From: Escherichia coli
GTDB lineage: Bacteria > Pseudomonadota > Gammaproteobacteria > Enterobacterales > Enterobacteriaceae
Assembly (NCBI RefSeq): GCF_045037415.1
Contig: NZ_CP173438.1
DNA: 64,000 bases
Direction: 5' to 3' (one strand)
The position numbers and the translations under genes are program-made. Of the stretch, positions 3,626-5,353 are shown in pieces. Numbering within the stretch: position 1 is the first letter of the stretch; every line of letters starts with the position of its first letter. The notes beneath the pieces are model-generated. The model searched no databases. It saw only the letters and a list, made by a program, of their open reading frames with translations, and was not told the DNA's origin.

Positions 3626-3976
3626 ATGAAAAACCTGAAAAAATTCATTCCCCCTGTTAAAAAACCTCGCCTCAGCGGCTGGCTGCTGACCTCAGTGCTG
3701 TTGCTGGGCACCATCGCTCTGGTCTCACCACAGCAGCTGCCTGTTGTGATCTACAAGCTGGCACTCATCACGCTGGCAGCAGTGCTGGGTTACTGGCTTG
3801 ACCGTTCGCTCTTCCCCAAAGCCCGTCCCGGTCAGTACCTGAAACATGACGACAGGCTGATGGCTGAAGGGCGTTTCCCGGTACAGACCGGCCTTCACCT
3901 GGTGTTTTCTGCTGCGTTAATCCGCCGTGCACTGATTGTTGCAGCGGTCTGCCTGGCTGTTGCGATGGGGCTTTAA
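3626..3976 (+). CDS. putative holin / small membrane protein
   Basis: ORF-track 3593..3976 trimmed to the ATG with AAGGAG 8 nt upstream; about three hydrophobic segments; sits directly upstream of the endolysin. Confidence 0.55.
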   Translation: MKNLKKFIPPVKKPRLSGWLLTSVLLLGTIALVSPQQLPVVIYKLALITLAAVLGYWLDRSLFPKARPGQYLKHDDRLMAEGRFPVQTGLHLVFSAALIRRALIVAAVCLAVAMGL

Positions 3977-3978
3977 TC

Positions 3979-4719
3979 ATGAACTGGCCGCAGATCACCT
4001 GGATTGTATGCATGTCCCTGAAACTGGCTTTCGAAGCCTTTCGGGTCTTCATCAGAACCGAACGCCTGTCAGTCCGCGCCGGGACCTTTCTGGTTCATAT
4101 GGCATGGGTATTCTTTGTCGCAATGTTGCTCTGGTGTGGCGGCTTTTTCAGCCAGGCATGCGCAGCACAACCTCCGCAGGCTGCGCTGCAGTATCGCGAT
4201 GATGTGATCCGTAATGCCCGGCTTGAATGGGGACTGTCTGCGCCGGTGGCCGATTTCGCCGCGCAACTGCATCAGGAAAGCGGCTGGCGACCTGATGCGA
4301 TCTCGCCGGCTGGCGCTCAGGGACTGGCGCAGTTCATGCCTGCCACTGCCGACTGGATAAGCCAGTTGATACCGATGCTGAGCAGTCGTGAGCCGTTTAA
4401 TCCGGCATGGGCTATCCGGGCGCTGGTCAGCTATGACCGCTGGCTGTGGCAGCGTGTCAGCGCCGCCAGTGACTGCGAGCGTATGGCCATGACACTGTCG
4501 GGCTATAACGGTGGTCTGGGCTGGGTACAACGGGACAGGCGGCTTGCATCACAGAAAGGTCTGGACAGCACCCGCTGGTTCGGACATGTCGCCACGGTGA
4601 ATGCCGGACGCAATGCGGCCAGCTGGCGGGAGAACCGCCATTATCCGCAGCGCATCCTGCGCGAACTGGCACCGCGATATCTCACATGGGGAGGCAGCAG
4701 TTGTGTGGCATCTGGTTAA
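3979..4719 (+). CDS. endolysin, lytic transglycosylase family, with hydrophobic N-terminal (SAR-like) segment
   Basis: SLT-type motif ESGWRPDAISPAGAQGLAQFMPATA; N-terminal hydrophobic stretch MAWVFFVAMLLWCGGFF. Confidence 0.8.
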   Translation: MNWPQITWIVCMSLKLAFEAFRVFIRTERLSVRAGTFLVHMAWVFFVAMLLWCGGFFSQACAAQPPQAALQYRDDVIRNARLEWGLSAPVADFAAQLHQESGWRPDAISPAGAQGLAQFMPATADWISQLIPMLSSREPFNPAWAIRALVSYDRWLWQRVSAASDCERMAMTLSGYNGGLGWVQRDRRLASQKGLDSTRWFGHVATVNAGRNAASWRENRHYPQRILRELAPRYLTWGGSSCVASG

Positions 4720-5353
4720 AAAGCTGCCGTGGCGCGGCATTCTGCTGGCCATTCTTATCAATGCCTTTCTGGTCGGCCTGTATGCCATGGGATACAGAAG
4801 TGGTCATGACTCTGCAAAGCGTGACGGTGATACCGCGCTAAGTCAGTTGCAGTCAGCATTTGACGCGTACAAAACGGAGCAGGCAACGCTTGAGAATGCT
4901 GCGCTGCGGGCCTGGGCCAGACGGTATCAGGAGCAGGTGGCCGCCGGGCAGCGGGCTGAAGCCGGTTATCTTGAGCAGATTGCTCAACTGGAGAGCCGGA
5001 ACAAACAACTACAGGGGCAAATTAACGATGTCACACAGCGCTGGATTGATGAAAAAGGTAAGAGTCATCCCATTGAGTGCGTGTTTACTCGCGGTTTCGT
5101 GCGCCAGTACAACGCCGCACTCGGATATGACAACGCATCCGTCGACACCGGTCATTCAGACTCAGTTGCCGCCACTGGCACCCGCTCTGGCACAGCGACC
5201 GGGCAACCTGAAACCACTGACACCCGGTTACGCGATTCGGGTGTCTCCCAGCGTGACGTTCTCGCCAACATCATCGACAACGCATGGCAATGTCGTCGCT
5301 GGCGGAACCAGATAAACGCGCTGCTGGATGAACGGGAAGGATTACAGAAATGA
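4703..5353 (+). CDS. Rz-like i-spanin
   Basis: ORF-track 4601..5353; likely GTG start near 4703 after GGGAGG; N-terminal TM then coiled-coil-rich periplasmic domain; overlaps endolysin 3' end. Confidence 0.6.
   Translation: MWHLVKKLPWRGILLAILINAFLVGLYAMGYRSGHDSAKRDGDTALSQLQSAFDAYKTEQATLENAALRAWARRYQEQVAAGQRAEAGYLEQIAQLESRNKQLQGQINDVTQRWIDEKGKSHPIECVFTRGFVRQYNAALGYDNASVDTGHSDSVAATGTRSGTATGQPETTDTRLRDSGVSQRDVLANIIDNAWQCRRWRNQINALLDEREGLQK
5049..5315 (+). CDS. Rz1-like o-spanin lipoprotein, embedded in Rz in the +1 frame
   Basis: MKKVRVIPLSAC... with lipobox-like LSAC/AVSC and proline-rich mature part, fully inside the Rz-like gene. Confidence 0.55.
   Translation: MKKVRVIPLSACLLAVSCASTTPHSDMTTHPSTPVIQTQLPPLAPALAQRPGNLKPLTPGYAIRVSPSVTFSPTSSTTHGNVVAGGTR

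Follow-up and report, generated by a model that had tools for sequence, protein, structure and literature searches.

Lysis cassette of a BcepMu-type Escherichia coli prophage: a transglycosylase endolysin with a fused two-helix membrane module, probably not an SAR domain

By what route does the endolysin of a transposable Escherichia coli prophage reach the cell wall, and is its N-terminal membrane region the signal-anchor-release (SAR) domain for which it was initially taken? This question is raised by a 64,000-nucleotide stretch of E. coli DNA (contig NZ_CP173438.1, assembly GCF_045037415.1), which we call the window and on which all coordinates below are given. A first-pass annotation of the window had described positions 3626-5353 as a compact lysis cassette comprising a holin-like protein, an SAR-type transglycosylase endolysin, and embedded Rz/Rz1 spanins. 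The presence of a lysis cassette at this location is confirmed, far beyond chance, by protein families, gene order, and coordinates. The fuller description is partly supported: its calls on the holin, on the class of the enzyme, and on the nested spanin genes stand, whereas the SAR label is unsupported. What is unusual about the locus is that the membrane-targeting head of the endolysin appears to be a borrowed two-helix membrane protein and not a classic SAR signal.

The segment runs exactly from the start of the holin gene to the stop of the Rz gene. It contains four translationally coupled genes, which encode a Holin_2-3 protein, an SLT transglycosylase, an Rz-like inner-membrane spanin (i-spanin), and an embedded lipoprotein, and whose stops and starts overlap or abut on one strand and are accompanied by Shine-Dalgarno sequences. 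Gene coordinates were taken from the listing of open reading frames (ORFs) and from direct reading of the letters (Table 1). Very likely, this segment forms the lysis cassette within the late operon of a transposable E. coli prophage of BcepMu type, and the cassette probably extends to position 5676. The DNA is 100% identical over 2301 base pairs to that of Escherichia phage PhiKM (PQ738613.1, Bcepmuvirus), whose source is uropathogenic E. coli, and two further enterobacterial records match the stretch at 84-88% identity. The cassette is present in 637 of 5426 complete E. coli genomes (about 12%), and 469 complete genomes carry it intact at an identity of at least 99%. The prophage around it there is a transposable one that combines Mu-like head genes with P2-like tail genes and also encodes a DDE transposase, Gam, and an ExeA-family protein.

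The first gene had been called holin-like, and two family matches agree with that call. Its product matches the full length of Pfam PF13272, Holin_2-3 (profile positions 1-106 of 106; E=1.1e-41; 141.8 bits against a cut-off of 27), as well as phrog_1528 'holin' (E=5.5e-55), and is orthologous to BcepMu gp21. The protein has a basic N-terminal tail, with six Lys or Arg residues among the first 15, and three hydrophobic segments by Kyte-Doolittle hydropathy (approximately residues 16-34, 40-58, and 89-116). In each of the nine loci examined, the gene just upstream of the SLT gene belongs to the Holin_2-3 family. Judged from its family and position, the protein would accumulate in the inner membrane and, at a set time, permeabilize or depolarize it.

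The second gene encodes a predicted SLT-type lytic transglycosylase (family 1, SLT/goose-type fold), and the SLT catalytic motif originally noticed in it is borne out by comparisons of family, sequence, and fold. The product matches Pfam SLT (PF01464; E=1.8e-14; 53.8 bits against a cut-off of 21.3) across residues 97-193, and also phrog_669 'endolysin' (E=8.8e-69). When the PDB was searched with phmmer, residues 85-184 aligned with the catalytic domain of E. coli Slt70 (1sly/1qsa). In this alignment HQES of the endolysin falls on RQES of Slt70 and E100-S101 on E478-S479, which points to E100 as the catalytic Glu; this residue is invariant in 41 aligned homologues. An AlphaFold model (predicted local distance difference test score, pLDDT, 79.7) finds its best PDB folds by Foldseek in MltF, MltE, and MltD, with probabilities of 0.9-1.0 and E-values of only 2e-3 or weaker. 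In addition, C166 and C242 are invariant or nearly so among homologues, and this pair suggests a disulfide of the kind formed in the periplasm. By comparison of its catalytic Glu and fold with those of known enzymes, the endolysin would thus act as an SLT-family lytic transglycosylase, an enzyme class that cuts MurNAc-GlcNAc bonds to form 1,6-anhydro-MurNAc.

It is the region preceding this catalytic domain that departs from expectation. The first-pass annotation had reported one hydrophobic N-terminal segment and had made its reading depend on a transmembrane or SAR segment being there. A membrane-targeting region with transmembrane segments is indeed present, although hydropathy and the AlphaFold model agree that the segments are two and not one. 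Hydropathy places them at approximately residues 5-25 and 36-57, and the model draws helices at residues 3-25 and 30-53, with lengths of 23 and 24 residues. Between the helices lies a basic loop, RTERLSVRAG, and the second helix ends in LLWCGGFF. The same two-helix head is found in 98 of the 120 closest database homologues (82 distinct sequences), which come from E. coli, Salmonella, Pectobacterium, Dickeya, Serratia, Pantoea, Morganella, and Arsenophonus. Conservation within the head is limited to its two ends, where xWPQI(T/V)W opens it and WLLWCGGFF closes it.

The charges of the head indicate how it may be oriented. The loop is net positive in 60 of 77 sequences and the N-terminal tail is uncharged in 72 of 77, from which the positive-inside rule predicts that the N terminus is outside, the loop inside, and the enzyme outside. 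Sec/YidC would insert the module as a helical hairpin in this orientation, with both its N and C termini out, and the enzyme would thereby become periplasmic. Hydropathy, the positive-inside rule, and the two conserved Cys residues of the catalytic domain together lead us to infer this location.

Where such a head came from is suggested by a family of small phage proteins that resemble it. The module matches phrog_5479 over the whole profile (positions 1-53 of 53; E=5e-4), and the free-standing 52-residue protein gp20 of phage JBD67 matches the same profile at E=1.8e-29. Moreover, BLASTP aligns JBD67 gp20 end to end with the N terminus of a Pectobacterium homologue of the endolysin (P0036; E=5e-6). 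The module and phrog_5479 have their end motifs in common, PQI..W near the N terminus and LLW(C/W)GGFF at the C terminus, and a profile built from the N-terminal domains retrieved free-standing proteins down to E=1e-24. With this profile, a word-indexed search gave 212 matches, mostly free-standing proteins of 52-60 residues. An exhaustive search gave 2178 clusters at 50% identity, including a few SLT fusions and many tandem two-copy forms of about 110 residues; the family consensus is PQI…KHGxPRxGK…LLWWGGFF. No Pfam match was found for any member of the family that was tried.

In seven unrelated phage contexts, the free-standing module gene lies among early or replication-accessory genes and outside lysis cassettes. 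In B3-like Pseudomonas phages, it is a separate 52-residue gene (JBD67 gene 20) located between the holin and SLT endolysin genes. The homology described above indicates that the module of the window endolysin was recruited from a two-helix phage membrane protein of the free-standing kind and was fused in frame to the enzyme. In the simplest history, the gene for an accessory membrane protein first came to lie beside the endolysin gene, as in B3-like phages, and was later fused to it in Enterobacterales, where it replaced the enzyme's own signal peptide. No prior description of a two-helix N-terminal domain on these endolysins was found in literature searches, whose coverage mostly excludes subscription papers. 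A reading of the E. coli-specific middle of the head (residues 12-49) as a double frameshift of …GLG…KHGxPRxGK… was considered and is unsupported, as the similarity in alternative frames is weak (score 31).

Database variants of the head and its relatives provide additional observations. Some appear to be frame-shifted at or just past a run of five T residues at 4144-4148 (GGC GGC TTT TTC, the codons for GGFF). Two of these variants, P0149 and P0159 (73-74 residues), comprise the two-helix module alone followed by a short out-of-frame tail, and two others, P0022 and P0025 (402 residues), start in another frame and read into the SLT domain. These variants could be sequencing errors, pseudogenes, or cases of natural separation of the module from the enzyme. 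In P0026 and P0110 the endolysin has a single-helix head, for example MTMRWTQITLIVLLWCSGFLTQAHAAQPL, which looks as if an internal deletion had brought the first part of helix 1 up against the last part of helix 2, giving a natural one-helix derivative. Finally, gp67 of Xanthomonas phage FoX2 (2668-2763 of its locus, L013) is a 31-residue ORF named 'putative lytic murein transglycosylase' that lies just past a free-standing two-helix gene. Its name probably derives from likeness to the N-terminal part of fused endolysins and not from an SLT domain.

The existence of a separate module gene raises the possibility that the N-terminal 60 codons of the window gene lie outside the true endolysin, owing to an internal start or a separate gene, and that a cytoplasmic SLT domain is released through holin holes as in phage lambda. 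The 52-residue gene of the B3-like phages and the module-only variants P0149 and P0159 are what such an arrangement would look like. However, the frame of the window gene runs through from module to enzyme with no stop, as it does in 98 of 120 homologues drawn from many genera, and both PGAP and GenBank call the full 246-residue frame. The conserved Cys pair of the enzyme also suggests a periplasmic disulfide. There is no conserved internal start or Shine-Dalgarno sequence, and M41, the sole internal Met, has no counterpart in KP12, in Phi06, or in most relatives. We therefore rejected an internal start for the endolysin, and regard a cytoplasmic enzyme as highly improbable.

Does the fused head work as an SAR domain? 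Such a domain is a single, weakly hydrophobic N-terminal helix rich in Gly, Ala, Ser, and Thr, and by definition it is not processed by signal peptidase. In the classic partnership of pinholin and SAR endolysin, the enzyme remains inactive on its uncleaved N-terminal anchor until the holin collapses the proton-motive force, and only then becomes periplasmic. The window cassette has a membrane segment before the catalytic domain, and every relative has a holin gene immediately before its endolysin gene. Helix 2 contains a conserved Cys (LLWCGGFF) in addition to the two near-invariant Cys residues of the enzyme, an arrangement that recalls P1 Lyz, which is subject to disulfide regulation. Furthermore, the related SLT endolysins of Pseudomonas Mu-like siphophages have been classed as SAR proteins (Chamblee et al. 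2022, PMC9239132).

Despite these similarities, we consider SAR-type release by the classic route unlikely. With two helices in the head, a loop carrying three Arg residues would need to cross the membrane. By hand counts, only 5 of the 22 residues of helix 2 (TFLVHMAWVFFVAMLLWCGGFF) are Gly, Ala, Ser, or Thr and 7 are aromatic, whereas 11 of 16 residues in the SAR segment of Mu gp22 (AALLAVTIAGGGVGGY) belong to the four small types (approximately 23% versus 70%). The Cys of helix 2 gives way to S, W, or A in several homologues as well as among the free-standing proteins. In addition, the head is followed by a conserved A-x-A motif whose middle residue varies freely, and in relatives this junction is preceded by a short signal peptide of the ordinary kind. 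The SAR endolysins P1 Lyz, phage 21 R21, and Mu gp22 do resemble the window enzyme in having their own N-terminal membrane targeting, in reaching the periplasm without holin holes, as predicted for the window enzyme, and in being paired by gene order with a small holin-type membrane protein. They differ in that the window enzyme is an SLT transglycosylase and not a T4-type lysozyme, and in that its two helices are not rich in Gly, Ala, Ser, and Thr, stand next to a conserved A-x-A, and are akin to an independent family. For these reasons, the term 'SAR-type' is best exchanged for one that describes export by way of a fused membrane module of two helices, followed by a probable signal-peptidase site.

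The A-x-A motif deserves particular attention. Among homologues, helix 2 is followed by GGFF-S-Q-A-x-A-A-(Q/E)-P-P. In the 98 homologues with the head, the third residue after GGFF is Ala in 94% and the fifth is Ala in 98%, and the fourth is any of at least eight residues (N, H, R, A, C, S, D, or Q). The motif lies 3-5 residues past helix 2, which itself ends in Gly-Gly. Signal peptidase I requires small residues at positions -3 and -1 and leaves position -2 free. Because A-x-A fits this pattern, cleavage is favored. A lipobox at FSQAC in the window enzyme was rejected, since Cys61 is the freely varying middle of A-x-A and is replaced by R, N, H, and others in relatives.

Other relatives join different N termini at the same motif. 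BcepMu gp22 has a plain 22-residue signal-peptide-like leader, MRVLIAFVVALLGAAAPVAA/QVP (junction PVAA/QVP), where the window enzyme carries its 58-residue module. The N terminus of KS10 gp9 consists of an amphipathic stretch and one helix ending in SAHA/QVP, Brenneria homologues read MARR…LLLLLTLLL…SDAA/QPP, and the JBD67 endolysin has a lipobox, LLSAC, followed by QPAFA. Thus, one orthologous family of SLT endolysins carries at least four N-terminal devices at a common A-x-A-(A)-Q-P-P junction, namely a plain signal peptide, a lipobox, an amphipathic stretch with one helix, and a captured two-helix membrane protein. This series offers natural material for establishing what separates SAR, cleaved, and tethered endolysins.

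Provided that the enzyme is exported as proposed, we give slightly less than an even chance to its being freed by host signal peptidase I through a cut after A60-x-A62. An SAR-like exit of the helices after depolarization is a distinctly weaker candidate for the release step, and a permanent tether is weaker again. As an account of the whole system, a tether would mean that an uncleaved anchor holds the enzyme at the outer face of the inner membrane, where it is activated by holin-dependent depolarization or by the membrane protein encoded downstream. The helices are long enough for a bilayer, the cellular transglycosylases of best-matching fold (MltE, MltF, and MltD) are themselves membrane-attached, and the gene for a membrane-tethered partner is next in the operon. 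This account is nonetheless doubtful, even more so than classic SAR release, because it leaves the conserved A-x-A without a role and because murein farther away would be out of reach of an enzyme held at the inner membrane. Relatives also reach the same mature domain via signal peptides or lipoboxes, and the tether is therefore not conserved.

If the A-x-A site is used, the window enzyme would resemble Lys44 of Oenococcus phage fOg44 in being exported and processed by host signal peptidase before lysis. In that case the window holin, as in lysis of the Lys44 type, would serve to collapse the membrane potential and not to let the enzyme out. The phage fOg44 system, whose secreted-endolysin paradigm is cited in PMC2628397, differs in having a Gram-positive host and an ordinary N-terminal signal peptide. 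In the window, the 'signal' would be helix 2 of a two-helix protein, and an internal cleavage would leave behind a membrane protein of 62 residues.

Several points weigh against a processed, periplasmic endolysin that works together with a holin. In this E. coli variant, helix 1 is weakly hydrophobic (best 15-residue Kyte-Doolittle mean of 1.45) and carries K15, E19, and R22, and it may consequently lie on the membrane and not span it. An A-x-A-like motif is kept even behind the lipobox of JBD67 (LLSAC-QPAFA), so that what is conserved could be a segment of the mature enzyme and not a site of cleavage. AlphaFold also draws this region as a short helix (residues 56-63) and not as the extended strand that signal peptidase binds. 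A secreted and processed endolysin leaves the role of the holin unexplained, and the first gene belongs to a putative holin family, Holin_2-3 itself being termed 'putative'. The searchable literature yielded no published functional test of the Holin_2-3 family and no lysis data for any BcepMu-type cassette. Lastly, the topology and cleavage calls rest on hydropathy, motif rules, and conservation.

The remaining two genes of the segment encode the spanins. The frame of the Rz-like gene is open from 4601, and the start preceded by a GGAGG Shine-Dalgarno sequence is the GTG at 4703, which gives boundaries identical to those in RefSeq. Its product matches phrog_1403 'Rz-like spanin' (E=4e-92) along with three further Rz-like PHROGs, and aligns with BcepMu gp23 and JBD67 gp22. 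It has an N-terminal transmembrane domain at approximately residues 11-30 (hydropathy peak 2.15, at residues 12-30), followed by a helical periplasmic domain.

An Rz1-like lipoprotein gene had been proposed to lie entirely inside the Rz gene in the +1 frame, and the sequence agrees in each respect. The ORF begins 346 nucleotides from the Rz start and encodes the signal MKKVRVIPLSACLLAVS/CAS (residues 1-17), with the lipobox L-A-V-S-C, Ser at -1, and Ala at +2. The lipoprotein signal on which the proposal depended is therefore found, with Cys18 as the predicted lipidated residue. It agrees with a PROSITE-type lipobox rule in having an early Lys or Arg, 10 uncharged residues before the Cys, and the Cys at position 18. 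Ala at +2, with no Asp, predicts sorting to the outer membrane. The mature protein of 71 residues includes 11 Pro and 20 Ser or Thr, and has no Cys beyond the lipidated one. One feature fits less well, in that Ala at -3 falls outside the strict consensus [LVI][ASTVI][GAS]C quoted by Kongari et al. (PMC6139136), who nevertheless validated an AWAC lipobox that also has Ala at -3. A shorter lipobox, LSAC (Cys12), was rejected in favor of Cys18 because an 11-residue signal is too short.

Is the embedded frame merely a chance opening in a GC-rich gene, with some other protein disrupting the outer membrane? The 88-residue product matches no PHROG, Pfam, or NCBIfam model and is unannotated in PQ738613, in the KP12 record, and in RefSeq (PGAP). 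When Rz codons were shuffled, 533 of 5000 shuffles had an out-of-frame ATG-initiated ORF of at least 88 residues, a flawed count in that only the first ATG of each open stretch was considered. Yet an out-of-frame ORF of at least 50 residues with a lipoprotein-like signal arose in only 61 of 10000 codon-order shuffles (0.6%). Conservation also speaks against chance. The embedded lipoprotein frame occurs in all nine genomes compared (the window, KP12, Phi06, Salmonella, Morganella, Pectobacterium, Brenneria, BcepMu, and JBD67, representing Burkholderia, Pseudomonas, and five genera of enterobacteria). A signal peptide, a lipobox, and a tail rich in Pro persist in these genomes even though the Rz proteins are highly divergent, and the shared motifs are TTP after the Cys, RP, and PLTPGYA.

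The overlap also leaves a mark on codon usage. Among identical Rz residues, the codon differs in 49% upstream of the overlap and in 31% inside it, with the same direction in 10 of 10 pairs; the summed Fisher p=1e-8 for this depletion is inflated because the pairs are non-independent. With a conserved frame, lipobox, and PLTPGYA motif, and with synonymous change depleted across the overlap, the embedded Rz1 is, by these comparative criteria, a real gene. A chance frame is close to refuted by this conservation and has almost negligible probability, given also that BcepMu gp24 is annotated as Rz1 and that the family is listed in a published spanin census. That the embedded arrangement was already known, as the first-pass annotation remarked, is clear from BcepMu gp24, from lambda, and from this census.

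In lambda, disruption of the outer membrane by Rz/Rz1-mediated fusion is established, and lambda Rz has 153 residues. The window pair resembles that of lambda in comprising an inner-membrane-anchored helical i-spanin and a Pro-rich lipoprotein, the outer-membrane spanin (o-spanin), encoded wholly inside it in the +1 frame. It differs in that the window Rz1 has no sequence similarity to lambda Rz1, Rz is longer (216 residues), and both periplasmic Cys residues, C126 and C197, are in Rz whereas mature Rz1 has none. An embedded spanin pair is expected to carry a periplasmic Cys in at least one partner for intermolecular disulfides, and here Rz supplies two. From homology and the signals present, Rz at the inner membrane and Rz1 at the outer membrane would bridge the periplasm after murein degradation and disrupt the outer membrane by fusion. 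Rz1 covers fractions 0.53-0.94 of the length of Rz in the window, and across the nine genomes it starts at 0.52-0.57 and ends at 0.92-1.0. Typical embedded o-spanins start at 0.4-0.5 and end at 0.9-1 of this length, and in lambda, too, the o-spanin spans about 0.5-0.95 of the i-spanin (PMC6139136). Rz is labelled 'putative lipoprotein' in the PhiKM and KP12 records and 'hypothetical protein' in RefSeq. Its o-spanin partner thus goes unannotated in a prophage that about 12% of complete E. coli genomes contain, which is a case of the documented spanin annotation gap.

The frames of the segment were found where the first-pass annotation had placed them, but the cassette probably includes one more gene than it had listed. 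The product of 5350-5676 belongs to the BcepMu gp25 family (phrog_462; E=2.4e-35), which is labelled 'lipoprotein' although the window member has no Cys. It has a hydrophobic stretch at residues 7-25, then K26, K31, R35, and R39, and a helical domain. In phage Mu, the DUF2730 protein gp25 is a 'releasin' that is required to free the SAR endolysin in a holin-less form of lysis (Chamblee et al. 2022, PMC9239132). A releasin gene is expected within five genes downstream of the endolysin gene, and the window gene is second after it. Its product also has the expected size of about 100 residues and the predicted architecture of an N-terminal transmembrane domain (N-out, C-in) with a helical cytoplasmic domain. 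Mu gp25 directly precedes a homologue of gp26, which in both Mu and the window belongs to phrog_436.

The position between Rz and gp26 is occupied differently in cassettes that are otherwise syntenic. A phrog_462 protein is found there in the window, KP12, Pectobacterium, Brenneria, BcepMu, and JBD67, and a DUF2730 protein in Salmonella, Morganella, and JBD25, the last being a close relative of JBD67. The Salmonella and Morganella prophages have the same holin, two-helix SLT endolysin, Rz, and gp26, together with a PF10805 (DUF2730) protein in this slot. In compared loci the slot gene lies at L008 4411-4713, L010 4372-4674, L018 3829-4149, and L006 3806-4195.

Remote homology between the 5350-5676 product and Mu gp25 was examined and rejected. 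PF10805 gave no match to the slot protein at E up to 10 in six members and five further relatives, and NCBIfam provided no link to DUF2730. Alignment by hhalign of phrog_462-type slot proteins with a DUF2730 alignment from Mu, Salmonella, Morganella, and JBD25 gave a probability below 1% with both shallow and deeper alignments, and two UniRef 'DUF2730' names were not reproduced. By analogy of position and topology, we infer that phrog_462 and DUF2730 proteins are interchangeable occupants of one functional slot. Given this exchange, the 5350-5676 product may modulate endolysin release as Mu gp25 does, which makes it a candidate accessory lysis gene.

The likeness to the gp22-gp23-gp23.1-gp25 region of Mu thus lies in the order of endolysin, spanins, small N-out/C-in tethered helical protein, gp26, and small terminase (TerS) of the Mu gp27 family, and in the true DUF2730 gene carried in the slot by sister prophages of the window. 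The differences are that the window slot protein is of phrog_462, that the window has a holin-family gene whereas Mu has none, and that the endolysin belongs to another enzyme class.

BcepMu itself is a far closer match. The order of gp21-gp27 is the same gene for gene (holin, endolysin, Rz, embedded Rz1, gp25, gp26, and TerS), all four lysis proteins and the three that follow belong to the same families, and Rz1 is embedded in the +1 frame at the same relative position. In the BcepMu annotation the holin is gp21, the endolysin is gp22, and the Rz-like spanin is gp23; gp24 bears the name 'Rz1, out of frame, embedded proline-rich protein'. Apart from the N terminus of the endolysin, the two cassettes differ in degree, since Rz/Rz1 and the holin are clearly diverged and the SLT domain is about 61% identical (61% to gp22 over residues 72-238 of the window enzyme). 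The BcepMu cassette was reportedly described in 2004, the primary paper on this phage is Summer et al. 2004 (J Mol Biol 340:49), and BcepMu-like prophages are known as the 'SalMu/PhotoMu/ChromoMu' family. The holin-endolysin-Rz-Rz1 cassette of BcepMu is on record (PMC2771037), and in the census of Kongari et al. (BcepMu, phiE255) and (B3, JBD25, JBD18, JBD67) appear as embedded two-component spanins (PMC6139136). This type of arrangement was thus known before, and the window cassette is an ordinary member of the BcepMu type that is already in public databases.

Table 1. Positions of the lysis genes, their principal domains and signals, and adjoining genes in the window
Feature	Coordinates	Strand	Details
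Shine-Dalgarno AAGGAG of holin gene	3613-3618	+	read from sequence
Holin gene	3626-3976	+	116 aa, ATG; AAGGAG 7 nt upstream
Endolysin gene	3979-4719	+	246 aa, ATG; starts 3 nt past holin stop
Endolysin N-terminal membrane module, aa 1-58	3979-4152	+	hydropathy, AlphaFold, phrog_5479 match
A60-C61-A62 (A-x-A), candidate signal-peptidase I site, predicted cut A62/A63	4156-4164	+	
SLT catalytic domain, aa 97-193	4267-4557	+	Pfam envelope; Glu100 codon 4276-4278
Rz-like i-spanin gene	4703-5353	+	216 aa, GTG; GGAGG 8 nt upstream; 17 nt overlap with endolysin
Rz1-like o-spanin gene	5049-5315	+	88 aa, ATG, +1 frame, wholly within Rz; Cys18 codon 5100-5102
gp25-like gene (phrog_462)	5350-5676	+	108 aa; ATGA overlap with Rz stop
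gp26-like gene	5676-5987	+	
Small terminase TerS, Mu gp27 family	5987-6532	+	

Some features of the surroundings were also noted. A scan of 3300-6700 for sigma-70 promoters and terminators gave counts at chance level, with none upstream of the holin gene. Late Mu-like promoters are activator-dependent, which makes such a scan uninformative. Directly upstream of the holin gene, the region 2387-3495 encodes on the opposite strand a 242-residue protein with a weak P-loop/AAA signature (Pfam E of about 0.007). Its gene overlaps the end of a 134-residue plus-strand ORF that is also annotated by RefSeq, and both lie between a Dam methylase gene and the lysis genes. Among database records, the 35-kilobase clone KP12_2 of Klebsiella phage KP12 (OM835952.1) is classified in Vequintavirinae, but its content is that of a BcepMu-like transposable prophage, including FluMu-like genes and, at 88% identity, the same lysis cassette. 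The clone probably represents prophage DNA of the host that was co-assembled with the phage.

Considered as a cassette, this textbook-style block of holin, endolysin, and embedded spanins, identical to that of a deposited phage, matters little. The fused head of the endolysin and the large parent family of that head are the only parts that a lysis specialist may wish to pursue. The family exceeds 2000 clusters at 50% identity, has no Pfam model, and is encoded mostly in early regions, and the fusion would provide its first functional context. As a tentative extension, the endolysin gene may encode a small polyprotein that is exported by insertion of its two-helix module and then cut by host signal peptidase after A60-x-A62 to yield a soluble periplasmic transglycosylase and a two-helix membrane protein of 62 residues. 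If this were true, the remnant would correspond to the phrog_5479 proteins that stand alone in the early regions of many unrelated phages. The 'signal sequence' of the endolysin would then itself be a second functional product, captured by fusion in the Enterobacterales branch of BcepMu-like phages, and the timing of lysis would be set by the holin and the releasin-slot protein rather than by SAR release.

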